A DNA stretch of 64,000 nucleotides from a virus. The stretch is taken from the IMG/VR virus record IMGVR_UViG_3300009152_000030, positions 110,118 through 174,117 of that record; one strand, 5' to 3'. Position 1 is the first letter of the stretch. Each line of letters opens with the position of its first letter. Below the pieces are notes generated by a model, which saw only the letters and a list, made by a program, of their open reading frames with translations, had not been told where the DNA came from and ran no database searches. Shown here piece after piece: positions 6,801-57,377 of the stretch. The position numbers and the translations under genes are program-made.

Positions 6801-9052
6801 ATCTTTATACTTTTGAGGATAGTCTTGATATGAACTGGATTGACGGGACTCTTGACGCCTTAGAGAATTGGAAAACAAATGCAAATAAAGCTTATGTTAT
6901 AAAGCCCAATGCAGGTCCTCAGGATGATAATCTATATATCCCTAGCTACCAACCCTTACAAGGTTACTATTGGTATGACTGGTTTGGCACATGGACTGGT
7001 GCACTAACAAGAGATGGTACAGCACGTGTTGTTCAAGTTGAAGATGGGCAAGTAAAAGAATTCGAAGATAGAGCCAAGAAGGCTGGAATTCCTACTTATT
7101 CTGCATGGGCAGCAGCAGCAACAACTCTTCCATTGGCTTGGAAATTGGGTAAAGGTGCGGGCGCTATTACTAAAACAAAAATTGGTCTTATAATAGCAGG
7201 AGCCTTAGGCTTTGGAGTTATACTTAAAGCCGTGTTCCAGGCAATGGGAACAGCCGGATACTATACAGTTGACTGGTTGCTTGGGCCAGATCAAGAGGAA
7301 GTGGAAAAAACGCTTGAAGAAGCAAAGTCTTATGGTGGTACTATCTTAGAAAGACATGCCCTTGCAAAAAGTAACCAAGACGAACATAAACAAAATAGTC
7401 CAATGTTAATTTCCGTTTATGATCCTGAAACATTAATTTATAATGTTTTCTACTCTACAATCTGGGATGTCTTTGAGGAGATGACCTATCGCCACCCTAG
7501 TTATGTCAAGCATCCTAGAATTTATAAGAATAGCAATAGAATGACTATGTTCTTTGGTCTTCCTGATCAAAATATGTGGGAATACTGTGGAGATCCTCTA
7601 GATGTTTATCGTCAAAATAAAATCTTTAGAAAAATACTAAAGTCAGGCGGAAAGCTAGAAGAAGGTAGCCCTTTCTTGCAAGAAACAAGAAGAGATACAA
7701 GAAGTGACTACACTCTTCCTGACTATGGGAATGTGCCAAGTGTTAATTCTGAAGAAATTGCAAATTTTGTCAGAATAGCAAGAAGACGTTTTAGACCATT
7801 CAGAACTTGGCATAATCTCAACTCCTATACAGACATTATTAGCAATGATATAGAGGCTACAGCTGATGGCTGGTATACAGAAGTTGAAGTGCAATTTAAT
7901 GACAGCACCATAAAGGGTGGTGCGGTTACAGAGATTAAAAATCCTAATGCATTCATTGACTGGAATGCTAACAATTCTGTTACAAGAAAGGCAAATATAG
8001 ATTTATCTCCTCAGTTTATAAGAAAGACTACATACCAATTTCCTAACTGCAAAAGTAAAGGAATGGCTTCAACCTATGCAAGATCAATACTTGCGAAACA
8101 AGCAAAAGAAATGTACAAAGGCTCACTTACAATTATGGGTAATCCCCATATCAAACCTTATGATATTTGTATCTTAAACGATACTTATAACAATATTTAT
8201 GGGCCTATAGAAGTTGAGGAAGTGCATCATATCTTTAGTCCAGAAACTGGGTATATTACACAACTTTACCCTGACACACTTGTAGTTGAAGAAGATGTTA
8301 CTCCTTATATTATTTTCAATGGACTACAGAGTGGTGTTTACACTAGAACTCAATACTATATGGAATTAGCCCTTGCAGCTTTCCCAACATGGGGTGAAAA
8401 GAATAATATGACAAGTGAGGGACAGTACTATCTCGATAGTTTAAACCAAGTAATAGAAAATTACAGACAAAAAGTTATTGGAATGCAAGAAGAAATAAGT
8501 GCTGCTGCCGATTTTACTGAGTTTTTATCAACAGGGGCTGGCGCTCTTGGCGGAATTGGCGGTGGATTATTAGGGTTAAGTACTAAAAGATTCGTATTTG
8601 GATTTGGTGGATTTGGCAGTGCCGCTAGCGCACTTCTAGGATCTGCAATTGCTGGAAGCCTAGCTTATTTCTATGCATCTTCATCTTTAACTTCAATCAT
8701 ATATAACTATATTGCTGAAGGTCGGGCCTACATGATGATTCCTTTGACAAGAGAAGGTATCCCCATGGTGGCAGGAACAAACATAGGCATGAGTACTGGT
8801 ATGTATAAGTCCCCTGGTCAATATATCCGTCAGTACTGGATGGATGGTGGACTTGGGCAGTCTATGACAAGAGCGGATTCTATAATGAAAACTGCAAATG
8901 CAAGATTAAGATACGGCGCAGCAATGGATAACACTTTACTTGAAGCTCAGTTCACAGCAGACGACCTAGGCTTCACCTATGATAAGATGTTTGAAGATAT
9001 TGGTGGTAAACTTGCAAATGATTACTTGTTCCCCAAGGTAAAGAAACAATAA
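887..9052 (+). CDS. 2721-aa tail-tip/baseplate hub-like protein with N-terminal M15-like peptidoglycan peptidase, Pro-rich linker and Gly-rich hydrophobic segments
   Basis: HHPRGRAID (HxxGxAxD) ... VRWMGY ... DTMHFDF. Pro-rich linker at ~1855-2045. KGSLTIMGNPHIKPYD...VEEVHHIFSPETGYIT resembles the last barrel of gp27/Mu gp44/gpD hubs. It lies just upstream of the gp25-like and J-like genes. Confidence 0.65.
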   Translation: MSEQRKSTYTFGTDRYVPDPCASKTYFRRDPAKRNPLTDAPAGWHNLVDVDPRLEAMIKAASKFLPPGWQVTNKGSVNEPGSKNIPRPFTGHTTRAKSQQRPATILRSTSGKAHHPRGRAIDTALIDDNGDALPNIRSANYFRVYELFAQIVVKCIKEGLVVKDNGDAYDWSDLLPGGAGHSRGPTNDQGDALDRSYQNGGLNAAGQQTGIPQGGTGVRWMGYLIDNDGTGTDITADTMHFDFGGGGGGGGTFATGASQEVITRLKRLAKNQNISIKNELGGENPITKGVPNWAAFKLPQSAEESAARFREALGLRPIEVAQVDPPTPPVEVPAVLPPPPAVAVLPAPPAVEPTPPPPPPAEVTPAPTPAPVPPPPEPAKPEIAPPAETEGELLLAVRKYKKQIEELKEMGWNLYTKDLTSFDLFYKENTLIIPTSTNPNIKFDRSGIGIDNVYTSSHLFCDFISATSFNVFKKLPIQGISMPTAQFLGRADNSFLVSFKSLGLDSVRQIEVIKDTLKKQAIQYKFIPESYVLRVENNFINAMGDLYFVINGLDSATLPETPGTYATEMRLTANDIYIKNPKIKRQSLVSSKDIKRTFIEELLSRTSVTYGIEVPGKENIISSIDSISNNYDPTSITATDPNEAVIDLLDSSLNKIQDELFLYWNTTRSVWYNDTLQGLGEGHKAFMRNICGIINLCNRLIIPNGYRYIDTDYRLKIPEGKEIIDLFHRKGNGFLHPTLRYDEPYLWLKDYSKKYESEFLPGGMGTVLGQQYILFQLLAPIGLDGIAPAYWDFKLEFEHTEYDLSELPLRIEAFSFADGEGQSSYADALNAWSKSGDVKTNPMAPFIRSHRSVLALARNTWFLWMWRTSLMQQNATGNSALGYAASFFEGTPRVFVELRDANKTKTDTALRENWHYVRYFAPNEIFQEEIPGPNFLRGLTVEAKEYGVNIFELVKPITSLETLMFPQDDIGGGFKDGDDVSTSNPYTIMKPGAKMLFKPWKGFDVKDMILDIALVWGGEFVVAKIGAGIVKVGSFIIGKGTAVVKAGGAVVANTKAGSTVMTTAGAVTAWWKTSGFVVACTQKLSAIRHWLLWNSAATDIRIAGLLVKDKVSAIGSRLGMAAATVPKTSIRARVAAQDALAAGGMSSKTIQFVPGKQTLITAASVAGEDIYDAYSKSLTQDQLNTELAKNRINNSVGGFGLNSANAQLNVESFYYDFHERTINGANPNYDQDSVVLTSITRWQGGASGDIIDADVGLDIERFFEAAGRDGDPVKKPLLLKNNKGYKNPRKVVDFVTEFEEIINNPGSNGWMKLTVPNKYFMDYIWNYLIIPYLNNVFDFENIYKISTETEFFPKTRELLIAQEQSLVEATYEDLDLPLHPYWNQRVSALGFDAVVDNFYQNQDMPDNQVIANFSRGNSFTEPDFYLYNPSIDGNDELLADRQIDNTKLSARWSAEDIYNFGINMSANLAAGDVERLQKTGSPLNADLRGGTPATRKNFKDTYKSFLDQNKLMEGVIGAWNNEIHDTQVAPKQDPNLDNADKVDKATGENLAYPKSKSPKAGWEELVLWLGPNQDLLAPMSMNFDKSDSENINLRMSTLANVTLQDFNRVKGEDYILRMQQYLREDYNEFLKSIKRPEVGETEEGISPDESIEPSPAGTAEKPRQKFGQPEETNQSVARPDFNLYNFFDDDCGGGDPSVLLQFSTERYANLTRLHDGLKSIGRKKLAARRAYPVCKIYLIEEDDIYNSEYVELDEIYTYSKIERLEIADSRKRPSSICRLTFVDPNGVLTGFNQFSKAANSILIGDDKITERRANVGTGLDFESSNALVRGTEFEQSDIGFVLNAGMKIKVCLGFSNDANKLEEVFLGEITDINLDGSGNKIEVVAQSYGAELIAKLKGTTPKETSVQHMDTFDLLARLMFEPEIIHFGKKKFDSIISFGEDKSIEVSNLAYKEGFAVGGMHNARRKGGFINYLYTFEDSLDMNWIDGTLDALENWKTNANKAYVIKPNAGPQDDNLYIPSYQPLQGYYWYDWFGTWTGALTRDGTARVVQVEDGQVKEFEDRAKKAGIPTYSAWAAAATTLPLAWKLGKGAGAITKTKIGLIIAGALGFGVILKAVFQAMGTAGYYTVDWLLGPDQEEVEKTLEEAKSYGGTILERHALAKSNQDEHKQNSPMLISVYDPETLIYNVFYSTIWDVFEEMTYRHPSYVKHPRIYKNSNRMTMFFGLPDQNMWEYCGDPLDVYRQNKIFRKILKSGGKLEEGSPFLQETRRDTRSDYTLPDYGNVPSVNSEEIANFVRIARRRFRPFRTWHNLNSYTDIISNDIEATADGWYTEVEVQFNDSTIKGGAVTEIKNPNAFIDWNANNSVTRKANIDLSPQFIRKTTYQFPNCKSKGMASTYARSILAKQAKEMYKGSLTIMGNPHIKPYDICILNDTYNNIYGPIEVEEVHHIFSPETGYITQLYPDTLVVEEDVTPYIIFNGLQSGVYTRTQYYMELALAAFPTWGEKNNMTSEGQYYLDSLNQVIENYRQKVIGMQEEISAAADFTEFLSTGAGALGGIGGGLLGLSTKRFVFGFGGFGSAASALLGSAIAGSLAYFYASSSLTSIIYNYIAEGRAYMMIPLTREGIPMVAGTNIGMSTGMYKSPGQYIRQYWMDGGLGQSMTRADSIMKTANARLRYGAAMDNTLLEAQFTADDLGFTYDKMFEDIGGKLANDYLFPKVKKQ

Positions 9053-45992: not shown

Positions 45993-47090
45993 CTATTTTA
46001 GTATTTCAGTAGCTATCTTTATAAGAACAGTTTTCTTAAAAAAGATAGGTTGTTTAATATTAACACTCTTAAGCCATTCTCTTATTTCAATTGGAGTATG
46101 CTCATTGTAGCCTTGAATACCATATTTTCTATAGATGAACTCTTGTTCAAGAGTATTCAATTTGTCAATTACTGAAGAGAAATTAGAACAAAAAGTTTTT
46201 TGATCTAAGTTTAAATTTACATCTTCGATTTGTTCATCTTTCTTTTCCTTGTCCACTATAAGTGTCATCGGATCTTCAGAAAATGCCTGATCATTATTGT
46301 ACAAAGCAATCTGATTGTATGGTGTATAGCTATAAATATAACCAAAGGCATGAGAAACACTTGACTCTTTCATCCTGGTAAGGCTAGAAAGTTTACCAAT
46401 ATTCTTACTAGAGTAAGGAATATTATGTTTCCGTATTGCTCCAAGGACTTTAGTTATATCAATTGTTAGATGGACTGGCAAGCGAATTAATCTAGCTTTA
46501 TTAGATAAAGCACGAGTAATCTTCTGCTTAATCCACCAAGTCGCATATGTTCCAAGTTTAACGTTTTTGTTTGGGTCATATCTATCTATTGCATACATAA
46601 ACCCAAAAACACCTTCTTGTATTAGATCATCAACAGATAATCCTTTACCGCCATAGCTACTTGCAATCTTCACTATCAAACGAAGATTATGAGCCACTAG
46701 AGTCTCTTCAAGCTCTAGAAAAACTTCCTTATATGGAATTAATTCTAGAAGATAAGATAACTCCTCTTTCTCGGCAACTAAAAGACTAGTTGTTATAGCA
46801 TCATTAGGAGATTCTAGTTTAAGTGCCACAACACCTAAGCGGTCTTTTAAATGTGTATACTGCTGCTTCAAGTAGAAATATTTACAGGCAAGACGATGCA
46901 TCTCAGCATCTTTCATTCTAGGATGGTTTTTAATGTAGTCGCTAAGATAAGCAATACTATCTTTTTCCATTCCATAGATTACAGAAGAAGAGTCAGAGAT
47001 TCGAGGCTCAAGACTGAGTGTATAGTTCCTTGTTTTCTTAGGAACTAATGTATTCAGACTAACTACCGAGTTGCTATTCGTCTTCTTCAT
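45993..47090 (-). CDS. sigma70-family (RpoD/RpoS-like) RNA polymerase sigma factor
   Basis: Region 2: NLRLIVKIA..Y..DDLIQEG..G...AIDRYDP....LGTYATWWIKQKITRAL..KARLIRLPVH. Confidence 0.9.
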   Translation of the reverse strand: MKKTNSNSVVSLNTLVPKKTRNYTLSLEPRISDSSSVIYGMEKDSIAYLSDYIKNHPRMKDAEMHRLACKYFYLKQQYTHLKDRLGVVALKLESPNDAITTSLLVAEKEELSYLLELIPYKEVFLELEETLVAHNLRLIVKIASSYGGKGLSVDDLIQEGVFGFMYAIDRYDPNKNVKLGTYATWWIKQKITRALSNKARLIRLPVHLTIDITKVLGAIRKHNIPYSSKNIGKLSSLTRMKESSVSHAFGYIYSYTPYNQIALYNNDQAFSEDPMTLIVDKEKKDEQIEDVNLNLDQKTFCSNFSSVIDKLNTLEQEFIYRKYGIQGYNEHTPIEIREWLKSVNIKQPIFFKKTVLIKIATEILK

Positions 47091-48255
47091 CGGAACCCTC
47101 CATTGTGCTAATTCTTTCTATATCAGTAACATCTAGTTTAGTTAGATCTCTAGGAGTCCCATTTGCCTCATAGCATATATTCTTGAATGGACAGTAACTA
47201 CAGTTCCAGTCGCCTTTTCTAACTTTCTTGCCTTTCGTAAACAACTCCATGTCTATTTTCGATAGTTCTTTACGACTAGCTAAGGTGGCTATCTTAGCCT
47301 GGTCATAGAAAAGTTCAAAGTCTCTGCCAGGAAGTGTTTCATTCTCAAGATGAGTATGAAGTTCCTGATAACGTTGAAGTATATGTTCAGCATACAACAC
47401 ATGCTTATATGGCTCACGATCTACATAAACTCTATGCAAGAACTTACCATTGGATACTTTCTCTTTTATAAGATCGATATCAAACTCTTTTCGCTCGCCA
47501 TTCTCACGATTAATATATGCAAGTTTCCAGTATCTATATTCCTTTTTAAGAATACAGAAATACATATGGTAAAGAATTGACTGAAGCAAATGCTCAGGCT
47601 TTGGCTCAGGTAAACTAATCCAGTGGCCTTTCTTACTCTTTACTCCAAATACTTGTCGAGGTCCTTTGTATCCTGAGATACTTTTAATCTCAATGCCAAC
47701 AATGTTATTAGTCTTAATATCACTAGAGTTTATTGAAGGATTGCCGTCTCGATCAAAGGTTGGAAGTTCATAGTCTTCTTTGGCAGGTATTGTGACTGCA
47801 AGATCTAATTCACCACTAATTACTGGTTTCAATAATTTATACGGGAATGGAAGTTCCCATTTAAATCTAAGACTATTTGTTTCATATACACAAGCTCTTT
47901 TGCTTTCATCAGTAATTGCTATTTCTGCGTATTTACTTAATGAAAACTTCCAAAGTTCCTTCGGGGTAAAAGGTTCAGCAGCTAGCACATGATCAAGATT
48001 AGGCTTGATGCTGGTAGCTTCCATGCGCTGAATCATAGCTCTGAACCATGACTTGCGAACACAACCGCCGATAATTATATCTTCGTTGTGCTCGTTTTTA
48101 ATTTTAGCGCTTGCCTCACTGGGATACAGATTAATATCTGGACGAATTCTGCTAGGTTGATTAGCAATACTTCGATCTAGTGTGCCCCAAAAGGAAAATT
48201 TATGTTCTGAGCTTGGGAATGAAACCTTTGTATCTTTCTTCGGTTTCTTCGCCAT
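47074..48255 (-). CDS. Cas4-like/PD-(D/E)xK exonuclease
   Basis: YPSEAS...GCVRKSWF, ISGELD, EIKS, QSILY, WNCSYCPFKNIC (Fe-S Cys cluster). Confidence 0.75.
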   Translation of the reverse strand: MAKKPKKDTKVSFPSSEHKFSFWGTLDRSIANQPSRIRPDINLYPSEASAKIKNEHNEDIIIGGCVRKSWFRAMIQRMEATSIKPNLDHVLAAEPFTPKELWKFSLSKYAEIAITDESKRACVYETNSLRFKWELPFPYKLLKPVISGELDLAVTIPAKEDYELPTFDRDGNPSINSSDIKTNNIVGIEIKSISGYKGPRQVFGVKSKKGHWISLPEPKPEHLLQSILYHMYFCILKKEYRYWKLAYINRENGERKEFDIDLIKEKVSNGKFLHRVYVDREPYKHVLYAEHILQRYQELHTHLENETLPGRDFELFYDQAKIATLASRKELSKIDMELFTKGKKVRKGDWNCSYCPFKNICYEANGTPRDLTKLDVTDIERISTMEGSDEEDE

Positions 48256-48282
48256 TGTTTTCCTTAAAATATAGATAATCAG

Positions 48283-48355
48283 CTCTGGCTACAGGATTCG
48301 AACCTGTGACCTAGAAATTAACAGTTTCCCGCTTCTACCGCTGAGCTAAGCCAGA
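48283..48355 (-). tRNA. tRNA-Asn (GTT), CCA not encoded
   Basis: Minus strand TCTGGCT-TA-GCTCAGCGGTAGAAGC-G-GGAAA-CTGTTAA-TTTCT-AGGTC-ACAGG-TTCGAAT-CCTGT-AGCCAGA-G forms a full cloverleaf. Confidence 0.92.
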
Positions 48356-48365
48356 ATTGATTATA

Positions 48366-48393
48366 ATAATAGACTATTTTAAAACAATGTCAA
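48366..48393 (-). promoter_or_regulatory. sigma70-type promoter upstream of tRNA-Asn
   Basis: TTGACA-16 nt-TATTAT (immediately followed by TATAAT), ending ~10 nt upstream of the tRNA. Confidence 0.6.
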
Positions 48394-48397
48394 CAGA

Positions 48398-48766
48398 TTA
48401 AATCAGCTTAATCTCAGGTGTAGGAACAACAGGAACAGGCTGAGGATCCGCAGAAAGCATATCTTCATCAGACATCTCTCTCATCTTATCGTTTGCAATC
48501 TTTGCGAACTCGCCATTCCGTCTAAGGAATTCTGCCATAAACTTGTCCTTCTCAATGGCTATACCATTAGCAGCAAGAGTGTCAACCAGAGTATCGACTA
48601 GTGCTGAAACCATGTATCCCTGATAGAGGCCAACGCTATTGTTAACAGCCATATATACATTATTCATGTATTGATTGACTTCTTCGCGGGTAGGTGAACC
48701 CTTAAGAAAGTCTTCGCTGTACTCGGGCTCTGCGGTATTGTCTTGTAGGTTATCTTGTTCAATCAT
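48398..48766 (-). CDS. hypothetical protein
   Basis: GAGGT RBS; 122 aa. Confidence 0.55.
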   Translation of the reverse strand: MIEQDNLQDNTAEPEYSEDFLKGSPTREEVNQYMNNVYMAVNNSVGLYQGYMVSALVDTLVDTLAANGIAIEKDKFMAEFLRRNGEFAKIANDKMREMSDEDMLSADPQPVPVVPTPEIKLI

Positions 48767-48776
48767 CTTGTACCTC

Positions 48777-49937
48777 TTACTTTAAATAGTTTAATGTTCC
48801 GCAATACTTAACGTCAGTCTCGTTAAATAATGTATTGCCATCTTGGTCTTGGTAAACGACTGCATATCCTAATGTAACTGCTTCCTTTGTGAACTTAGCA
48901 CTGCGCTGATAGTCCATCAACTTAACTAAGCAACCTTGCTCCATTACAAGTTTACCCTTGTAGACAAGCTTACCTAGCTTATGTGTATGTCCCATAACAA
49001 CACAATCATAACTATCCCATTCTAGGAAGTTTTGCAAATAATCGCAAGCTTTAACTACAGTGCCGAGAGGCGCGCTGAGATAAGTGCTTGGGTGTAAAAA
49101 TACGGTCTTGTTTAGTTGAAGGATCCAAGGATTACCCTGTGGATTGTATATAACGTTTGGTAGTTCTACAGTGCCAATATGAGCACCATCCTCATCTAGG
49201 ATATAACCCTTTGCTAGATAGTATAGAGTGTCCTTGCATGCAAACATCTGCATGGTTGGATCAATCTTATTAGCAAAGTATTTTTCAAGTCTATGCTCGT
49301 GGTTGCCACGTACGATATAAACCTGAGGAAAGATTCCAGCAACTTTACGAACAAATTCCAAAGCCATTGTGTACTCTAGATGCATTGGGATGTTCTTATC
49401 CTTGGCAAAGCTACTAGCGGCGTAACCGTCTAGTAAGTCGCCATTAAGAACAAGAATATCTGCATCTTTGTGTAGCCCAATAACTTCGTCAATTATTTCT
49501 TGGTTTTGGAATGGAAAGTGAATATCACTTAAACTAAGAATCTTAATTGCTGCTTCTGCTGTGCTAGCTCTCTTGGTTAGGAAAACCTTGTCCTTTGCGT
49601 CCTTAACGGCATCGAGATAAGCTTGTATACTACCTGCCTTCTCGACATCCTTTGTGACATCCTTGGGGTCTTCTGCGCTTGCTAGAGCTTGGATAACAGT
49701 TGGCTTAGTAGGGCCAATCTTCTTAGTCTTGATGTTCTTACTACTTGGGATCTTATAGTAATTAATAATCTTATTCAAGGTAGAAGTAGCTTTAGGATTG
49801 TCACCCTTCTGTACTTCTATGGCTCCCCTCTTGGCAAGGCGCTCTAGCGTATGCCTAGATATATTGTACTTAATAGAAAGTAAAGTACCAGGAATCCAAG
49901 TATCAAGATCTTCTTTTTGCCAAATAACTGTATTCAT
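48777..49937 (-). CDS. calcineurin-like metallophosphoesterase with N-terminal HTH-like region
   Basis: SDIH, NGDLLD, RGNHE, LHP, GHTH. The N-terminal LSIKYNISRHTLERLAKRGAI is HTH-like. Confidence 0.8.
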   Translation of the reverse strand: MNTVIWQKEDLDTWIPGTLLSIKYNISRHTLERLAKRGAIEVQKGDNPKATSTLNKIINYYKIPSSKNIKTKKIGPTKPTVIQALASAEDPKDVTKDVEKAGSIQAYLDAVKDAKDKVFLTKRASTAEAAIKILSLSDIHFPFQNQEIIDEVIGLHKDADILVLNGDLLDGYAASSFAKDKNIPMHLEYTMALEFVRKVAGIFPQVYIVRGNHEHRLEKYFANKIDPTMQMFACKDTLYYLAKGYILDEDGAHIGTVELPNVIYNPQGNPWILQLNKTVFLHPSTYLSAPLGTVVKACDYLQNFLEWDSYDCVVMGHTHKLGKLVYKGKLVMEQGCLVKLMDYQRSAKFTKEAVTLGYAVVYQDQDGNTLFNETDVKYCGTLNYLK

Positions 49938-49946
49938 ATAGGGACC

Positions 49947-52364
49947 TTACTTTATTAAAGTAATTTTTCCTACTGGGCGAATCCGTAAGAAGTCATCTTT
50001 CTTAGTTGCTTTGTAGGAGAAAAATAATAGGGAACAATAGTCAAGTTTGTCTTTCAATTCTTCATATTGATCTGAGAACAATGTGACTTCTGATATAGAA
50101 GATAAATCTTCGATTGTCAATGTTGCCATTAATTTTCCTTTCGATTTACCACTTTTAATTTGCTGTTCTTTAATATGAGATACCGCAACGAGCAGATTGC
50201 CTTCGTTACTATTTGTTTCATCTATATCCTCTATTTGACTAATTAAAATGCCAGGAGGCGTCTTAGTGATATAGGACAGAGGATGGCGGCTAATAAAGAA
50301 CTTACAATATTCAGATTCCCATTTGACAATTTGAAGTGGGACTTTGTATCCCAGACTTTTCTTGATAGATTCTAGGTCAGGAAAGACAGGCTGTTCTGGA
50401 ACTTTGAGTACCAATGGCTTCTTAGGTCTTAGTTCAGAGTAAACCTTCTTACTGTCAGAATCTAGTTGGACTGTAATGACACCAGCTTTTACTTTGGTAG
50501 TCCAGTCATCGAGCAATGCAGGATAAGCATCTAGCTCTTTGTTACGCTCAAAAGCTTGAACTATTCTTGTTTGATAGTTTTCAACCTTTGTATAGTAATC
50601 AAAGATATCAGAAAGTTTCTCTACAAGCTTAACTCTGTCATATCCAAAACTATCAAAGGCACCAACCTTTGCAAGTATGCTAACAACGCCAGCATTAATC
50701 TTTGTTCGATTAATTCTAGTAAAGAAGTCAGCCATGCTTGTAAAGGACTTTCGGCCACGAGCCTTCAGTATAAGATCGCTAGCTTTGTTACCAATGCCAT
50801 TGATCATGCCAAGGCCAAATAGGATAGTGTTATCATCCAGCTTAGTAAAACCAATATCACTATTGTTAATGCTAGGTGGAAGAATATTGTATCCCATCTG
50901 CCGATACTCGTTGATATAACGAACCAGTTTCTCTGGCTTACCACTCCTAACAGTCATTAGCGTAAGCATAAAGTCTGTAGGATAGTAAGTTTTAAGATAT
51001 GCATTGAAATATGTAATGAAAGCATAAGCAAGAGCATGACTTTTATTAAATCCATACTCAGCAAATGCTGCAATGATATTCCATATACGAGTTGCTTCGC
51101 TAGTATTAATCTGATGAAGACGTCCACACCCGTCCACAAAAAGTGTGCGATACTCTTCCATTAGAATAGCGTCCTTTTTGCCCATTGCTTTTCTAATCTT
51201 ATCAGCTTCTTGTAAGGTTACACCTGCAAGAATTTGACATGCTGCCATAATTTGTTCTTGGTAAATAAGAACACCTCCGGTCTCAGCAAGTATACCATCA
51301 AGTAAGGGATGCAATTTATTTTGAGTCTCTTTAGTTGTCTTGTAATCGATATAGTCTTGGAGAAGACCAGAGTCACGAGGACCAGGACGATTAAGAGCTG
51401 AGAAAACTGCAAGATCCTGAACGCTCTGTGGCTTAAGATCAGCTACAAGCTTTAGGAGATAAGTCTCCTCCATCTGGAATAGGCCAGCAGTAAATCCTTT
51501 ATTGATTAATTCAAACACTGCAGGATCATCTACTGGAACTTCTTCCTCTAGCCATTTAAGGGACTTGCCAATACGCTTACAGGTAAGATCATTAATAGTA
51601 AGACAGTCAATTCTAAGGATATCGAACTTAATAAAGTTCATCTTCTCTAGAGTTGGACCTTCCCACTGCGTAAGATTAAACCAGTCTGCGCCTTCAGTCT
51701 TGCTTTTGCGAATTGAAATCATCTGGTCTACTGGACTTGTACCAATTAAAACTGCGCTAGCATGTACGCTGACCTCCTTGGCTTGACCATCGACTGGTCC
51801 GCAAAGACTAAAGATTTCCTCATTAGCTTCTACAACCTTCTTAATGTGCTCACTATTGTCTTCAATTAGCTCTTTGTAAGTTACGTATTTACCACGGTGA
51901 CTTTCAGGCAAACTATCAGCAAGACGTTCTGCGTCAGCAATAGTTCTGTATGATCCATCTGCGTTCTTAAGTAACTTAGTAAAAGCCTTAACACTAGTCT
52001 TAAGAGACCATGGCTTATAAGTTGAGACACGAAGAACACGGTCATGACCATATTTAGTTTGCAGTGCTTTGATTAGATCATCAGCACGGACATTACAAAA
52101 GTCAGTGTCAATGTCTGGACCTTCGCCGTCAACGTTATAAGTTATACGTGAATCAGAATTGTAATTATCAGACAACTTAAGCAAATATAGAATTGCACTA
52201 TTAGACTTATTAGACAATGATTTCTGCGAATCATAAGCATTGTTTATAAATACTAGAGTTTCAGGAGTAAGATACTTAATCTCAAACTCCAAATAGTCTT
52301 TATTAACACCTGGCAACCTTTCCTTGTTAAAGAAAGATCGTATGTTTTCTATAGTAATTGACAT
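49947..52364 (-). CDS. dnaE: DNA polymerase III alpha, C-terminal part (catalytic palm aspartates, thumb, fingers, HhH, OB)
   Basis: Start at ATG 52364 after GGAG. PDIDTDF, SVHASAV, KFDIL, GLFQME, ALNRPGP, LIYQEQIM, FAEYGFNKSHA, PPSINNS, GKLMATLTIEDLS. Confidence 0.9.
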   Translation of the reverse strand: MSITIENIRSFFNKERLPGVNKDYLEFEIKYLTPETLVFINNAYDSQKSLSNKSNSAILYLLKLSDNYNSDSRITYNVDGEGPDIDTDFCNVRADDLIKALQTKYGHDRVLRVSTYKPWSLKTSVKAFTKLLKNADGSYRTIADAERLADSLPESHRGKYVTYKELIEDNSEHIKKVVEANEEIFSLCGPVDGQAKEVSVHASAVLIGTSPVDQMISIRKSKTEGADWFNLTQWEGPTLEKMNFIKFDILRIDCLTINDLTCKRIGKSLKWLEEEVPVDDPAVFELINKGFTAGLFQMEETYLLKLVADLKPQSVQDLAVFSALNRPGPRDSGLLQDYIDYKTTKETQNKLHPLLDGILAETGGVLIYQEQIMAACQILAGVTLQEADKIRKAMGKKDAILMEEYRTLFVDGCGRLHQINTSEATRIWNIIAAFAEYGFNKSHALAYAFITYFNAYLKTYYPTDFMLTLMTVRSGKPEKLVRYINEYRQMGYNILPPSINNSDIGFTKLDDNTILFGLGMINGIGNKASDLILKARGRKSFTSMADFFTRINRTKINAGVVSILAKVGAFDSFGYDRVKLVEKLSDIFDYYTKVENYQTRIVQAFERNKELDAYPALLDDWTTKVKAGVITVQLDSDSKKVYSELRPKKPLVLKVPEQPVFPDLESIKKSLGYKVPLQIVKWESEYCKFFISRHPLSYITKTPPGILISQIEDIDETNSNEGNLLVAVSHIKEQQIKSGKSKGKLMATLTIEDLSSISEVTLFSDQYEELKDKLDYCSLLFFSYKATKKDDFLRIRPVGKITLIK

Positions 52365-52365
52365 T

Positions 52366-52656
52366 CTAACTCCAGCATTGACGGGCAATAGATTTAAATA
52401 AGTGTAAAGTTTCTTTACGCTTATGATGTGCATTAGATACTTGGTTATTAACCATAATGTATCTAAAGAATAAAGCAAGTAATATTAAAAAAGGATGCTT
52501 AATAGCCCAGAAGTTCTTCTTGTTAAATATAGACTTAAGAATAAAAGACTCCTTTAGAGATTCTATGCTTTGAGTTTCTGTATTGTAAACAAATTCTTCT
52601 GCAATTGTGTTGCGATAAGGAACCTCTGGCATATCTATTTTTATATTTTTAAGCAT
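52366..52656 (-). CDS. hypothetical 96-aa protein between the two dnaE halves
   Basis: Its ATG overlaps the end of dnaE-N (ATGCTTAA) with an AAGGA RBS. Its TAG ends 1 nt before the dnaE-C ATG. It has one hydrophobic stretch (PFLILLALFFRYIMV). Confidence 0.5.
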   Translation of the reverse strand: MLKNIKIDMPEVPYRNTIAEEFVYNTETQSIESLKESFILKSIFNKKNFWAIKHPFLILLALFFRYIMVNNQVSNAHHKRKETLHLFKSIARQCWS

Positions 52657-53929
52657 TTAATTCCTTCATATCCTCTGAAAAGTCTAAAGATATTCTTACT
52701 CGACCAGGATTCAGGAAGCGCTCAAAGAGTAAGCCATGCTTAACAGGATCAAGATGCTTAGCAGTGATTCCAAGTGACCATGAGATCAAAGATCCGCCAC
52801 CAGAACCACGTGCTGGGCCAACGGGTATACCCATACCCTTAGCAAGACTAACATAGTCCTGAACGACAAGGAAATAAGAACTATAACGAGCCTCGTCAAT
52901 GACTTGGAACTCGTATTTAATTCTATCCTTATATGCCTTAGGAACATCCGCCCAGGTAGCTACGCCAAGTCTAGCTATAAGTCCAGCCTTAGCCTTCTTA
53001 AGCAACATTAAGCTTGTGCCTTCCGGAGTAAGACCTTCAAGCTGAAGATTGGGAGCTCTAGTGACTCTTTCAAAGTAGTCACCATCTACAAGATCTGCTA
53101 CATGCTGAGTATTAGTAATTGCTTCGTGTGGCAATTGCCAATCGTCGCATAAGCCCTTAGCAAATTCCGCATCATACATCCAAGCATTGTGGTCTTGGAC
53201 TTCATATGGCATTGTATCTGGAGTCTTATGCATACTCACACACATAACATAGCTACGTAGTTTATACTGATCTTGGTTCTGATGATGTGCATCTGCAGTA
53301 AGGACAAGGGGAATATTCTTGCGTTTACTTAGATCAATTAGATATTGATTATAGCCATATTGCTTTTCAACATTGTTATGCTGAAGCTCAAGGAAGAAGC
53401 TGTCGTCGCCGACTGCCTCTCTAACTTCATCACACCATCTATCAATCTTTGCATGTTCACCCCAGTGCCAGTACTTAAAGCACTGACTACTGATACAAGT
53501 ACTAGTAGCAATCAAGCCCTTAGCATGTTGCTTAAACATCTCTAAGTCAATGCGAGGATAACGATAAAAGCCATCCTCATATGAATACTTAGTAAGCTTC
53601 ATAAGATTCTTATAGCCTTCTTCATTCTTAGCAAGTAATAAGAAGTGGCCATTGTTAACTGCCTTCTCTGCAACGCCATTCTCTGGCATAAAATCAGACT
53701 TAGTCTTAGCATCATTAAATGCAAGATAAGTCTCATTGCCAATAATAGGCTTTACATTAGCAGCCCGGCAACCTTTTACAAACTCTGGAATGCCACCCAT
53801 ATATCCATGGTCGGTCAAAGCAACTGCATTCATCCCTCTAGACGCAACAATCTTGCCCATTTGATCAGCTGGCTGTAAGCCATCAAGCAATGAATAATAA
53901 CTATGTGCGTGAAGATGTACCATTCCCAT
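52649..53929 (-). CDS. dnaE: DNA polymerase III alpha, N-terminal part (PHP domain plus first half of palm)
   Basis: HLHAHSYYSLLDG, ALTDHG, GNETY, GHFLLLAKN, TSTC, TADAH, GPARGSGGGSL, LLFERFLNPGR, then a stop 16 aa later. Confidence 0.9.
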   Translation of the reverse strand: MGMVHLHAHSYYSLLDGLQPADQMGKIVASRGMNAVALTDHGYMGGIPEFVKGCRAANVKPIIGNETYLAFNDAKTKSDFMPENGVAEKAVNNGHFLLLAKNEEGYKNLMKLTKYSYEDGFYRYPRIDLEMFKQHAKGLIATSTCISSQCFKYWHWGEHAKIDRWCDEVREAVGDDSFFLELQHNNVEKQYGYNQYLIDLSKRKNIPLVLTADAHHQNQDQYKLRSYVMCVSMHKTPDTMPYEVQDHNAWMYDAEFAKGLCDDWQLPHEAITNTQHVADLVDGDYFERVTRAPNLQLEGLTPEGTSLMLLKKAKAGLIARLGVATWADVPKAYKDRIKYEFQVIDEARYSSYFLVVQDYVSLAKGMGIPVGPARGSGGGSLISWSLGITAKHLDPVKHGLLFERFLNPGRVRISLDFSEDMKELNA

Positions 53930-53968
53930 ATCATTCTCTCTTATGTTAAAAATGAACAAACACCAATA

Positions 53969-54010
53969 GGTGACAAGGCTAAGTATAGCCCGTCACCACA
54001 TGGTTTGCAA
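53969..54010 (-). promoter_or_regulatory. sigma70-type promoter of dnaE-N embedded in an inverted repeat
   Basis: TTGCAA-17 nt-TATACT. The -10 box lies at the centre of GGTGAC-g-GGCTA-tact-TAGCC-tt-GTCACC. Confidence 0.6.
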
Positions 54011-54022
54011 TAGCAAAAAGTA

Positions 54023-54925
54023 TTAAGCGACTAGTTTCTTGCAGATCTGTATTCCAAGCTCAGCCAAAGGACTGCGCTCAATTTCAATAAGTTCTACGAA
54101 ACTAGTAAGCGGACTCTCTTGATAAATGTCAAGTCCGATTGTTTGAAGGACTGGGCAAAGTTTACCTTTACGGTTTTCTTTTTCGTCAATCTGATCTGTA
54201 TCAGCCATAAGTATTAACTTACTCTTCTCACCTAGACGAGTGATTAGAGTCTTGAACTGATGGATCTCAACGTTCTGGGCTTCATCACAAATGACTAAAG
54301 CATTTGTAAAGTCTTCACCACGCATATATTCCAAAGGAATGCATTCAATCTTGCCTTCTTCGAGCTTCTGCTCAAAGATCTTTAGGTAAGTTTTACCCCA
54401 GATCTTTGCAAGAGCGCGTTCGTAAGAGCTGAAAACAGGTTTCATCTTGTCTATGATTGTGCCTGGAACATCGCCAATTCTGCCACCGCTAGCAGTCGTA
54501 GCTTGGGCTCTGCTTTTAGTTAGAATAATTCTTTCGAATTTCTTCTCATCAAGCATATTAATTGCAGCAACCATTGTTACATAAGTCTTACCTGAGCCAG
54601 CGCCACCAAAGACTGTAAGCATTGGGATAGTTTGATCATATAAAGCAGACAGTAAATATTTTTGCTCTAAGTTCTTAGGTGTAAATTTCTTAACTGTAGG
54701 TAGATTTATATTGACTAAAGCTTCTCCATTCCAACGTTTAAGAGCACTATAGCTTCCATGTCTAAAACACCAATAGCTATTAACTGGGGGTGGTGTCATC
54801 TCAAGCCATGGATCAAAGTCAAGATCATCAATAGTAACAGGGTCGTCTGTGAATAAAGGCCCTAAATCTGCTGAATATTCCACATCAATTATTGTAGGAT
54901 GAAATATTTCCTTTGGCTCTTGCAT
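54023..54925 (-). CDS. phoH: PhoH-family ATPase
   Basis: PKNLEQ, GGAGSGKT, IGDVPG, LEYMRG, ICDEAQN, ITRLGEKSK, DTDQID, ERSPLA. Confidence 0.9.
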   Translation of the reverse strand: MQEPKEIFHPTIIDVEYSADLGPLFTDDPVTIDDLDFDPWLEMTPPPVNSYWCFRHGSYSALKRWNGEALVNINLPTVKKFTPKNLEQKYLLSALYDQTIPMLTVFGGAGSGKTYVTMVAAINMLDEKKFERIILTKSRAQATTASGGRIGDVPGTIIDKMKPVFSSYERALAKIWGKTYLKIFEQKLEEGKIECIPLEYMRGEDFTNALVICDEAQNVEIHQFKTLITRLGEKSKLILMADTDQIDEKENRKGKLCPVLQTIGLDIYQESPLTSFVELIEIERSPLAELGIQICKKLVA

Positions 54926-54933
54926 TGAGTTCC

Positions 54934-56277
54934 TTACAAATAGATCTTGTTCAAGTTAGGTAATTTACGATTGACTGTCTCCTTTGGCACAACTAGATAA
55001 AATTTATTTGTAATATTACTTTTATTTATTTCTGGAATTATCCCATCAGTGAAACATAATATTGCGTCATATTTGTATCTACCGTTATGTTGATTAATTC
55101 TTTTTATTGCAGGATTCAAATCTGTTCCGCCACCACCTTTCCAATCAATACTATCTGCAAAGCTTCTGTTCTTTGTCTTTACTAATTCTTCTCTAACGAC
55201 TGTATCACCCATCAGGTAATGTATGTTTGCATGCCTTGATAACTTCTTTATATAAGATACAAATTTTTGAGCAAGCAACAAGTCAATGCTACCACTTGTA
55301 TCAAGAATACAAGCAATTAGAGGGCGAGTAGTTTTCTCATGACCAGGCAATACTCCAGGAAGTACGCAGTTATACTTAGCCCAAGAAGGGTTAGATTTAT
55401 TTTTCTTACCTGCTCTTTTTAACTGTTCAATTAGTCGCAAAGCAGTGTCAGAAGTTTCTTTTACTGTAATCCTTTGAGTATCATATTTCTCAAAACTAGT
55501 GTCATTTAAAAATGGGTCTTGAGAGATATCTGGAATTTTTGCTATCTGTTTTTCTAATGTAGCTTCTCTATCCTTAATCTCTTCATCTGTCAGCTCAAAG
55601 TCGTCAAGCATATCATCAGAAAGATCTGATTCAGCTTTCAAGATGTCTTCATCAGTGACATTAAGTTTAAGCCATTCAAAAATTTCCTCAGTAGTTATCT
55701 TAAAAATACTTCTTCTTAGTCCGCCTAGTCCCTGATACAAAGGACTAGATGGAGAAAGATAGTGAAGAGATAGACTAGGATGATTTATGTTTCCTAGCTC
55801 TTTCACTCCAGTATAAAAGACATTGTCTACAACATTAGTAAACCCGTAATCCGGCTGTAAACAATCGTAAGACTGATCTTCGAATAGGAGTTCGGTGTTT
55901 AACTTTATGTCCTGAGCAATGTTAAGTAACAAATGATATTGTCTTGGCGTCTTATACATCTTCACAGGATGGGCATATATAAAATGCTTTAACTCGTGAA
56001 GAATAATAAAAGCGTTCTGATGCTCAGAGTAAGTTGCCATCTTGTCTGCGTGCAGATAGAGACAATACTCTTTGCTTTCCTTATCCCAGGATATAGCAGC
56101 AATGAACTTCTCACCAAAACCTTGTTCTTTTACTGTTGTATCGTTTAGATAATGCTTATTTATATATGGCAAGTATCGAAATAAATAATTGTAATTAAAT
56201 ACATAAGATTTAGTACTTGAAGATGATTTAAAGGATAAATCCGAAATGTATTTTATTAATTTATTTATATTGCTCAT
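54934..56277 (-). CDS. HEXXH metallopeptidase-like plus vWA domain protein (DUF2201-like)
   Basis: LHELKH...NIAQDIKLN. MIDAS DTSGS, GGGGTD and FTDG. Probable start MSNINK, with ATGA overlap with the AAA gene. Confidence 0.8.
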   Translation of the reverse strand: MSNINKLIKYISDLSFKSSSSTKSYVFNYNYLFRYLPYINKHYLNDTTVKEQGFGEKFIAAISWDKESKEYCLYLHADKMATYSEHQNAFIILHELKHFIYAHPVKMYKTPRQYHLLLNIAQDIKLNTELLFEDQSYDCLQPDYGFTNVVDNVFYTGVKELGNINHPSLSLHYLSPSSPLYQGLGGLRRSIFKITTEEIFEWLKLNVTDEDILKAESDLSDDMLDDFELTDEEIKDREATLEKQIAKIPDISQDPFLNDTSFEKYDTQRITVKETSDTALRLIEQLKRAGKKNKSNPSWAKYNCVLPGVLPGHEKTTRPLIACILDTSGSIDLLLAQKFVSYIKKLSRHANIHYLMGDTVVREELVKTKNRSFADSIDWKGGGGTDLNPAIKRINQHNGRYKYDAILCFTDGIIPEINKSNITNKFYLVVPKETVNRKLPNLNKIYL

Positions 56278-57377
56278 TCTAATGTATTGACCTGCCATTT
56301 TGTTTGAGACAACATAGCATAGAATTCAGGATACTCTTTTGCATATTGCAAAATATACTGAGTACTAGCTAGTTGATCCTTTGTCAAGGTTGGAATTAAG
56401 TTCTTATACTCAGAGAAAACAAGAACACTATCATAGTAGTCTATGGTCTTTGAGTTAATTCTATTAAGAATAGAATCGTTAAAGAATGATTCTTTAGCAA
56501 TCCAGTCCTTGTTAAGAAGAATGTTAAGCCATTTATTAGCAATGTTAGATTTAATTAGACCACTGGCAAGTGCAAAGACTGCCGTCTTTGTCTCCCCAGT
56601 AATCTCTATGCCATTAGTTCTGGCCCAGAGAGTCCAAAGAGCAAGACGATTAAGCATCTCGATAGTACGAGGACATGGGCTAATTTCTTTTTCGATATCC
56701 CATTCTCCTGCAAGTTGACCCGACTGTATATTCTCAATAGGATTATTCATATTAGAGAGGATATACGACATAGCTGGATCAATTATGTCGGAGCATTGAG
56801 ATAGGAATTCAGAAGTTGTTAAGTTGTAATGGACATGAGCCCATCTGCTTTTCATAGCTTTGTCTAGTGTATCTGTGTTGAACTCACCAACAGGAGGGTT
56901 ACAAGCACTGATTAGGCGGCTATTTTGAGGTAAGGCATACTCACCTAGCCGACGCTCTGCTGTGATACTCATCATTGCGTTAATGCCTTCTTGCGTGCCA
57001 CGATTTAATTCGTCTACAAAAAGAACAAAGAAATCTGAGTCTACAGAGTTTGGAAGCCAGGAAGGCTTTGTCTTTCTATGGACCATCCGTTCAGCATCTA
57101 CAACTGGTATACCCCAGTCTGCAGTGTCCGTATGTGCTAATCTAAGATCAAAAGATGAAGGATTAAACACACTAGATACTTGACGTTTAGCAAAAATACT
57201 CTTACAAAACATAGGAGTCTCAAGCTTTAGGTCTCGAAAGAAATTATCTATTGTCTTGGATATAATCGTGCTTTTACCAATGCCACTAGCGCCCCAGACG
57301 CAAACAGGAATGTCTGCGTCCAGGGCTATTCTAGCGACTTTTTCTAATTCACTAGAGGAGATTGTCAATGACGCCAT
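56274..57377 (-). CDS. MoxR/AAA_5-like ATPase
   Basis: WGASGIGKS, DLRL, GIP, LFVDELNRG, ACNP, LDKAMKSRW, PCPRT. Confidence 0.85.
   Translation of the reverse strand: MASLTISSSELEKVARIALDADIPVCVWGASGIGKSTIISKTIDNFFRDLKLETPMFCKSIFAKRQVSSVFNPSSFDLRLAHTDTADWGIPVVDAERMVHRKTKPSWLPNSVDSDFFVLFVDELNRGTQEGINAMMSITAERRLGEYALPQNSRLISACNPPVGEFNTDTLDKAMKSRWAHVHYNLTTSEFLSQCSDIIDPAMSYILSNMNNPIENIQSGQLAGEWDIEKEISPCPRTIEMLNRLALWTLWARTNGIEITGETKTAVFALASGLIKSNIANKWLNILLNKDWIAKESFFNDSILNRINSKTIDYYDSVLVFSEYKNLIPTLTKDQLASTQYILQYAKEYPEFYAMLSQTKWQVNTLE

Follow-up and report, generated by a model that had tools for sequence, protein, structure and literature searches.

A Phage DnaE Polymerase Divided Inside Its Palm Between Two Adjacent Genes: a Probable Two-Subunit Enzyme

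Introduction

To our knowledge, the active site of every C-family replicase studied so far lies within one chain. The genome of an uncultured phage (IMG/VR record IMGVR_UViG_3300009152_000030, 174,117 bp, complete according to CheckV) raises the question of how such an enzyme could be made when its gene is broken in the middle of this site. In the final 64 kb of this record (positions 110,118 to 174,117, i.e., 64,000 nucleotides, hereafter the window), two genes, dnaE-N and dnaE-C, encode the two halves of a DnaE polymerase. The motifs that bind the nucleotide are carried by the first and the aspartates that bind the metal by the second. An earlier note on this DNA, made from the letters alone, had described the break as free of any intein. 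The split is genuine, is conserved in relatives and shows neither intein nor intron signals. Sequence comparisons and complex models make it probable that the phage relies on an obligate two-subunit DnaE, whose composite active site would be held together by a clasp made of two overlap remnants.

Organization of the Divided dnaE

The genes dnaE-N (52649-53929, 426 amino acids (aa), ATG at 53929) and dnaE-C (49947-52364, 805 aa) are both located on the minus strand, the coordinates taken from the list of open reading frames (ORFs) including the stop codons. They are separated by a small gene in the same orientation, ORF96 (52366-52656, minus strand). The ATG of ORF96 overlaps the stop codon of dnaE-N (AATGCTTAA) and its TAG finishes 1 base ahead of the dnaE-C ATG at 52364. 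A GGAG ribosome-binding site (52370-52373, minus strand), read from the sequence 5 nt upstream of this ATG (52362-52364), precedes dnaE-C, as the earlier note had seen, and no terminator-like site was found between the two dnaE halves. The three genes would thus be translationally coupled, the middle ORF being an optional passenger. Between the GS motif with its arginines and the DxD motif, the reading frame is stopped and shifted and a 291-nt ORF is interposed, an arrangement which is kept in relatives. The catalytic elements of DnaE, normally expected on one polypeptide, are therefore distributed over two in this phage. All the motifs quoted in the earlier note, which considered the canonical DnaE stretch as divided over two genes, were found at the places where it had put them.

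The N-half begins with a PHP domain (53378-53917, minus strand, aa 5-184; PF02811, E 9e-41), in which none of the nine metal-ligand positions is missing (H5, H7, H9, D16, H41, E66, H95, C145 and D213/H215). These ten residues are invariant or nearly so among homologues. By analogy with PHP-active DnaE1 enzymes, this domain is likely to be an intrinsic 3'-5' proofreader. It is followed by the N-lobe of the palm as delimited by Pfam (52700-52999, minus strand, aa 311-410), which includes the GS loop PARGSGGGS (52790-52816, minus strand, residues 372-380) and FERFLNPGR (52700-52726, minus strand, residues 402-410). P372, R374, G375, S376, G379, R404, F405, N407 and R410 do not vary among 42 N-halves or N-portions of DnaE; the E. 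coli counterparts of the loop and arginines are R362/G363/S364, R390 and R396. The chain then ends with a short tail, VRISLDFSEDMKELNA (52652-52699, minus strand, aa 411-426, then stop), which is beta-strand-like and holds no catalytic Asp. Relatives share its pattern R-[VI]-x-h-x-L-x-[FL]; the corresponding stretch of contiguous enzymes reads R-V-S-M-P-D-I-D-I-D-F. In other words, the aspartates of the DxD strand are gone while a strand-like pattern is retained. The reading of the N-half as a chain that keeps its PHP ligands, GS motif and FERFLNPGR and then runs into a tail deprived of DxD is hence borne out by the sequence.

The C-half starts with a leader of 82 residues (52119-52364, minus strand, aa 1-82), a helical module conserved in all split relatives that contains KDYLEFEIKYL and NSAILYLLKLSD. 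Immediately after it come an intact PDIDTDF, the catalytic DxD strand (52098-52118, minus strand, aa 83-89), and, further downstream, KFD with the third catalytic Asp and a conserved Lys (51621-51629, minus strand, aa 246-248). P83, D84, D86, D88, K246 and D248 are the same in all 30 C-halves or C-portions compared, and D84, D86 and D248 correspond to the E. coli catalytic triad of D401, D403 and D555. The loss of motifs is thus reciprocal, as had been proposed. Beyond the leader and the metal-binding part of the palm, the C-half comprises the thumb, the fingers (PF17657, E 7e-43), an HhH domain (PF14579, HHH_6, E 3e-23) and an OB domain, this last with a weak match (E 0.057). Taken over both halves, the features that define a DnaE (PHP, GS loop and arginines, DxD and third Asp, fingers, HhH and OB) are all present, OB weakly. 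The predicted structure of the C-half can be superposed on the Pol III alpha of Taq (3e0d; Z 16.7, 371 residues aligned, root-mean-square deviation (rmsd) 6.9 A) and of M. tuberculosis (5lew; Z 16.4, 349 residues, rmsd 6.5 A).

The position of the cut can be defined accurately. The Pfam palm model PF07733 (260 positions) is cut at about 101-109, between FERFLNPGR and PDIDTDF: the N-half covers its positions 5-109 and the C-half, from residue 82, its positions 101-259. In the same way, when both proteins are compared by tblastn with about 1,400 phage DnaE genes, N-half matches end at residue ~417-424 and most C-half matches begin at 83, so that on contiguous genes the halves adjoin with an overlap of ~7 aa.

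These halves are the sole recognizable DNA polymerase of the phage. In the 174-kb genome, PF07733 matches only the two halves, and no match was obtained for family A polymerase, family B polymerase (PF00136) or DnaN. No close relative was found among isolated phages by blastn, and the best tblastn identities are below 40%.

Conservation of the Break and of Its Two Flanks

The earlier note suggested looking for the same break point in other phages, and also named an assembly artefact at the junction as what would overturn it. The same break was found in at least 11 independent assemblies (L003-L007, L027, L028, L032, L029, L033 and L010), drawn from four sources (IMG/VR, ENA, JGI and Logan). 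The split is therefore neither due to chance nor to misassembly, and it is not unique to the phage of the window: it is common to a group of relatives, and a similar break was inferred in jumbo phages (PMC7824862). The C-halves of L003 to L007 share 91-99% identity with that of the window, whereas the N-halves of the six others range from 62% down to 34%, the N-half identities of the whole set extending from 99% to 34%. In all split relatives, the N-half ends 10-35 residues past FERFLNPGR and the C-half leader has 81-92 residues ahead of PDIDxDF. Stand-alone N-half homologues (P0001-P0021) have 396-441 aa. A word-based search with the leader retrieves the near subclade only.

Selection was examined by computing non-synonymous (pN) and synonymous (pS) divergence between the window and L004-L006. 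Both dnaE cores show a pN of 0.026 versus a pS of 0.48 (pN/pS ~0.05). The values are 0.13-0.18 versus more than 0.9 for the N-half tail, and ~0.3 versus 0.6-0.8 for the C-half leader. Tail, leader and both cores are thus under purifying selection. Furthermore, E28, N52, N55, S56 and G80 of the leader are invariant across the family, which indicates that the leader is not in free decay.

These data leave little room for the view that sequencing or assembly created the split, or that dnaE is a freshly broken pseudogene in a phage that uses the polymerase of its host. The record is indeed a metagenomic assembly. However, an identical architecture recurs in independent assemblies of four origins, the pN/pS ratio is the low one just given in both halves, and every catalytic residue is intact. 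Such an explanation is scarcely credible.

What is found between the halves differs from one relative to another. In the contig of P0003, gene calls show a gap of 15 nt with nothing in it, while other relatives carry gap ORFs of 96/104, 110, 146, 181 or 185 aa. The five gap ORFs whose sequence is available, all but the one of 146 aa, match no family and show no mutual similarity, except for the 96/104 pair. The gap of L010 holds one reverse-strand ORF and that of L033 three reverse-strand genes over 2.5 kb. The latter (L033:6251-8625, between dnaE-N and dnaE-C) encode a GDSL-lipase-like protein of 215 aa and unknown proteins of 434 and 136 aa. This gap behaves as a hot spot for gene insertion.

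ORF96 itself is a real, fast-evolving small gene. It shares 30% identity (E 2.7e-8) with the 104-aa ORF located at the same site in L004-L007, encodes one hydrophobic helix (AIKHPFLILLALFFRYIMV) and belongs to no Pfam or PHROG family. The possibility that its product is a third subunit needed by the two halves was considered and rejected: ORF96 is homologous only in the closest subclade and is elsewhere absent or replaced by unrelated ORFs. It is therefore accessory and no universal partner of the polymerase.

Among relatives, two clades of split forms can be distinguished (see below), clade A, which includes the window, and clade B, which includes L010, L033 and their relatives. The N-half tails of clade B (L010:2126-3439 (+); P0155) are longer and rich in Cys and His at their end, for example ...HTHCTHKHKCSCPGDH. 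This end may be a metal-binding knob, missing from the clade of the window. No C-half is present on the clade B contigs of P0155 and P0028.

Are the Two Halves Rejoined?

A gene interrupted at such a place could still give one polypeptide if a self-splicing intron were removed from its transcript, if an intein, cryptic or split in an unusual way, joined its two products, or if a frameshift or bypass (recoding) carried translation from one ORF into the other. No part of the gene is more conserved than the one in which the break lies, and introns and inteins are usually inserted at such places. Moreover, removal of a hypothetical intron at 52126-52697, with a U before the 5' site and a G at the 3' end, would yield FERFLNPGR-VEG-PDIDTDF, and the distant relative L010 has an intein-like N-fragment elsewhere in the same gene. 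Several observations nevertheless speak against rejoining. At the gathering threshold, Rfam finds one tRNA only and no intron in the whole window, and with E values up to 10 it returns only noise for 51900-52950, with no group I or II intron match. As Rfam can miss unusual introns, the RNA search alone is not decisive; the intron 52126-52697 is ruled out by the conservation, at the protein level, of tail, ORF96 and leader, together with the reverse-strand genes that sit between the halves in relatives. The putative intron codes for protein in three frames under purifying selection, as illustrated by a change from AGA to CGC that preserves an Arg of the tail. Since this DNA is translated, an intron with these limits is excluded.

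The intein hypothesis was rejected in the same way, and with it the idea that a dead intein serves as the clasp. The start of the tail has no Cys or Ser, there is no TxxH and no HN, and no conserved Cys, Ser or Thr precedes PDID. No Hint or intein model of Pfam matches the halves of the window or the leaders, and the leader is helical, unlike the beta fold of HINT domains. Altogether, rejoining of the two ORFs by any of these routes appears very improbable, and the absence of intein and intron at the break implies that two chains probably come together to form the active site.

The relative L010 deserves mention for a second break in the same gene. Its dnaE-C (L010:3998-5614 (+)) is broken again, at residues ~442-536: after GFADY the sequence runs CLHGDTKV... 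and ends in a segment resembling the N-fragment of an intein (PF14890, 31 bits, under the cut-off of 35.8). The next large ORF (5897-7321) encodes a repeat-rich protein and no remainder of DnaE, so the rest of this DnaE must be encoded elsewhere. The dnaE of L010 thus seems, from its sequence, to combine one intein-type and one intein-free break.

A Predicted Composite Active Site

The association of the two halves was modelled with the whole N-half and residues 1-570 of the C-half, in three runs and with three controls. In all three runs, the interaction prediction score from aligned errors (ipSAE) was 0.85, whereas the best control gave 0.00. Of 80 solved complexes 58 attain this mark, as do 2 of 110 mismatched pairs. 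The runs agree on at least 97% of contacts, and the predicted local distance difference test (pLDDT) of the partner is 91. In the model, F89 of the DxD strand lies against N-half residues 369-370, in the GS strand, and L97 lies against N-half residues 362-368. Most of leader residues 27-59 are in the interface. Residues 413-416 of the N-half tail pair with leader residues 75-77. The two segments that surround this pairing, N 401-426 and C 71-84, have low confidence when each chain is folded singly by AlphaFold2 (AF2) and low expected error in the complex. The canonical palm would hence be rebuilt across both chains. The proposal of the earlier note that one active site may be assembled in trans gains from the placing of the GS strand (369-370) by F89 in this model.

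We therefore favour as probable a DnaE-type replicative polymerase made as two separately translated and non-covalently joined subunits. The product of dnaE-N would provide the PHP domain, with its probable proofreading, together with the half of the palm that binds the nucleotide, GS loop and FERF...R arginines included. That of dnaE-C would provide the metal-binding DxD strand, the third Asp with its Lys, thumb, fingers, HhH and OB, a single active site being built from both. The break would fall inside a short overlap, in which the N-half ends in a degenerate DxD strand and the C-half begins with the 82-aa helical leader. Tail and leader would have been retained because together they form the proposed clasp, in which intermolecular strand pairing and helix packing would hold the halves together.

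Several points weigh against this arrangement. The score of the complex could come from the memory that the program has of solved single-chain DnaE enzymes; as these resemble the pair, the success of the model shows likeness and not binding. Halves of split genes also generally tend to pass this test. The pairing of tail and leader is the sole part without a solved analogue, and it was obtained with one program only. Furthermore, AF2 models of the single chain can be aligned so that leader residue 19 falls on Taq residue ~300, which means that the leader might fill the site of the N-lobe and compete with the N-half; N52, N55 and S56 of the leader could then act as substitute nucleotide contacts. 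Single-chain and complex models thus hint at different placements of the leader, in the N-lobe site or beside it. With respect to the origin of the leader (see below), its homology to the palm is statistically weak, and the Pfam palm model stops short of it, without any extension into the leader.

Some of these points lead to a distinct explanation, namely that the C-half is self-sufficient, its leader replacing the N-lobe of the palm and the N-half being docked as a separate PHP proofreading subunit. The first 70 residues of the leader do fold confidently alone, as three or four helices (AF2, pLDDT ~90), and its invariant polar residues lie at the start of the helix that matches the post-GS helix. 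Several VIA structural alignments to the Taq and M. tuberculosis DnaE also begin at leader residue ~19-21 and chain residue ~300-312, i.e., ~50 residues more, although these ranges are end points only and the rmsd is 6.5-6.9 A. On the other hand, R374, G375, S376, G379, R404 and R410 of the N-half are invariant down to 34% identity, which is hard to explain if this half has lost the binding of deoxynucleoside triphosphates. The leader has no Gly-Ser at the functional position and lacks the entire FERF helix. In addition, the complex model sets the GS strand of the N-half, not the leader, by the DxD strand. Self-sufficiency of the C-half is consequently judged unlikely, and the two-subunit enzyme with a shared active site is kept as the preferred interpretation in what follows.

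Origin of the Leader

In the earlier note, the leader was taken for a decayed copy of the stretch of palm at the end of the N-half. One part of this claim fares better than the other. Collinear similarity does exist: when the profile of the leader is compared with the ends of the N-halves of the same family, KDYLEFE aligns with KDRIKYE and NSAILYLLKLSD with GSLISWSLGIT (profile-profile, P 0.022). Against 121 contiguous DnaE segments, hhalign aligns SAILYLLKLSD locally with SLVAYxLGIT in the expected register (P 5e-4), a score reached by 2 of 300 column-shuffled leaders. The global collinear alignment with the same 121 canonical DnaE gives a P of 0.009. The leaders of clade A and clade B separately match the same palm helix (P 2.8e-3 and P 2.2e-4), and BLAST alignments with the contiguous DnaE of Pseudomonas phage Y1 and of a Listeria phage extend upstream of PDID into the leader and stay collinear there. 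The order and lengths of the leader helices in the AF2 model also agree with those of the palm helices. Decay, the other part of the claim, does not describe the leader well, given the invariant residues listed above. On the whole, it seems rather likely, from these comparisons of sequences, that the leader arose as a copy of the last palm segment of the N-half and then diverged.

Evolution of the Split

A contiguous relative of the divided DnaE is P0128. This protein of 1121 aa, encoded on a 160-kb phage contig, shares 47% identity with the N-half and 37% with the C-half, and its neighbourhood (RecA...DUF2201-PhoH-DnaE) is the same as that of the split relatives. In trees of the N-core and of the C-core (quick trees, FastTree and LG+G4), clade A groups with P0128, whereas clade B groups with other unsplit genes. 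Monophyly of the split forms is rejected by approximately unbiased (AU) tests (p 0.0015 for the N-core and p 0.038 for the C-core), the tested group having been named after a first tree had been seen. The leaders tell another story. Those of clades A and B are homologous over 80 columns (31% identity, hhalign P 1.3e-16), including the first 20 residues, which have no counterpart in the palm. The history of the junction therefore differs from that of the cores, and involves either several re-fusions or a transfer of the junction. Besides, the junction of the window (52119-52699) compared with L004-L007 has a pS of 0.6-0.98, above that of the flanking dnaE cores (0.48). This suggests, as far as divergence between sequences can tell, that it is exchanged by recombination even between close relatives.

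One tentative idea would be that the junction (tail, optional ORF and leader) is a transferable cassette that splits dnaE genes among phages. It would move by recombination in the conserved codons that flank it, those of FERFLNPxR and PDxDxDF, possibly driven by nucleases encoded in the gap, and would bring along its own non-covalent clasp. In function it would thus resemble a split intein, though one in which splicing never takes place. Such a cassette would explain why leaders are homologous while cores belong to separate clades, why the synonymous divergence of the junction exceeds that of its flanks and why the gap is a hot spot of unrelated ORFs. The same data can be read as one ancient split followed by several re-fusions, and we regard the cassette as a rather doubtful proposition.

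Another phage DnaE of the collection illustrates a further way in which phages trim this protein. The enzyme encoded by L009:3611-6523 (+) has 970 aa and no PHP domain, while PF07733 (19-260) is intact. Its gene lies downstream of a DNA methylase gene and of a 174-aa ORF.

Comparison with Known Divided Polymerases

The single-chain DnaE of E. coli (2HNH, 5FKU), T. aquaticus (2HPI, 3E0D) and M. tuberculosis (5LEW) have the same domains, motifs and fold as the enzyme described here. They consist of one polypeptide without overlap of tail and leader, whereas in the window the FERFLNPxR helix and the PDxDxDF strand are on different chains.

With respect to where the enzyme is cut, the nearest precedent in print is a split minimal Pol III alpha reported from jumbo phages of group 2.2 (T4-like) (Iyer, Anantharaman, Krishnan, Burroughs and Aravind 2021, Viruses 13:63, PMC7824862). 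It comprises an NTP-binding protein and a Mg2+/template-binding protein, which are "likely to reconstitute" one enzyme without inteins. The cut is conceptually the same, the likeness being one of description between two systems deduced computationally. However, the version of jumbo phages has neither PHP nor other Pol III domains, its genes lie far apart and a family B replicase is present beside it (PMC7824862). By contrast, the DnaE of the window is full-size (PHP, palm, thumb, fingers, HhH and OB), is encoded by adjacent genes that appear to be coupled, occurs in a genome in which no family A or B polymerase was found and has a conserved overlap, tail and leader, at both broken ends.

Breaks healed by inteins are well documented. 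In cyanobacteria, as well as among the "fractured genes" of metagenomic phage-like DNA, dnaE is carried by at least two genes, and split inteins repair the break by protein trans-splicing; in fractured genes, the pieces often have a free-standing gene between them (Dassa et al. 2009, PMC2677866). These breaks occur at other sites. The halves of the window have no intein motif, no Hint domain and no +1 nucleophile, and must therefore stay separate. The relative L010, described above, seems to unite both kinds of break, intein-type and intein-free.

Adjacent DnaE-like genes without intein are also known from Microbacterium cluster EF phages, such as genes 56 and 57 of the isolated phage AnnaSerena (Jacobs-Sera et al. 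2020, PMC7302621). Gene 56 encodes a PHP domain only and gene 57 has an intact PF07733 (15-260). AnnaSerena is thus cut at the boundary between PHP and palm, which leaves the active site undivided, unlike the window, where the cut is inside the palm (PF07733 ~101-109).

The family B polymerase of PhiKZ, made of DNAP-N and DNAP-C, was found by experiment to form a stable 1:1 complex (Basu et al. 2026 preprint, PMC13648687). It likewise consists of two separately encoded parts, but of an unrelated family and fold, and is experimentally verified whereas the DnaE of the window is known computationally. The PhiKZ complex demonstrates that non-covalent phage polymerases can work. In the literature searched, no account was found of a full-size DnaE whose palm is cut and whose broken ends overlap as tail and leader.

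If the binding of nucleotide and of metal is indeed located on different polypeptides, the pair would be a natural heterodimeric DnaE and would allow direct tests of the cooperation between sub-lobes of the palm. It would also provide a documented case of gene fission by duplication of an overlap followed by complementary decay, and a small natural docking module, formed by tail and leader, that joins protein halves without splicing. For annotation, it should be emphasized that such phages are easily scored as having a broken or partial dnaE. The locus also raises the question of whether such junctions spread between phage genomes.

Genes Surrounding the Divided dnaE

The two dnaE genes belong to a string of replication and recombination genes (window 45993-57377, minus strand) that includes RecA, unknown or AAA genes, a DUF2201/vWA-like gene, PhoH, dnaE-N, dnaE-C and a metallophosphatase. 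The string from RecA to the metallophosphatase is conserved across the phage group (loci L027, L028, L029, L032 and L034). In the window, it continues with a candidate PD-(D/E)XK-like exonuclease and a sigma-70-like factor. Shortly downstream of the replication genes lies the tRNA gene detected by Rfam (48283-48355, minus strand, 62 bits), whose anticodon loop CUGUUAA contains the anticodon GUU (Asn).

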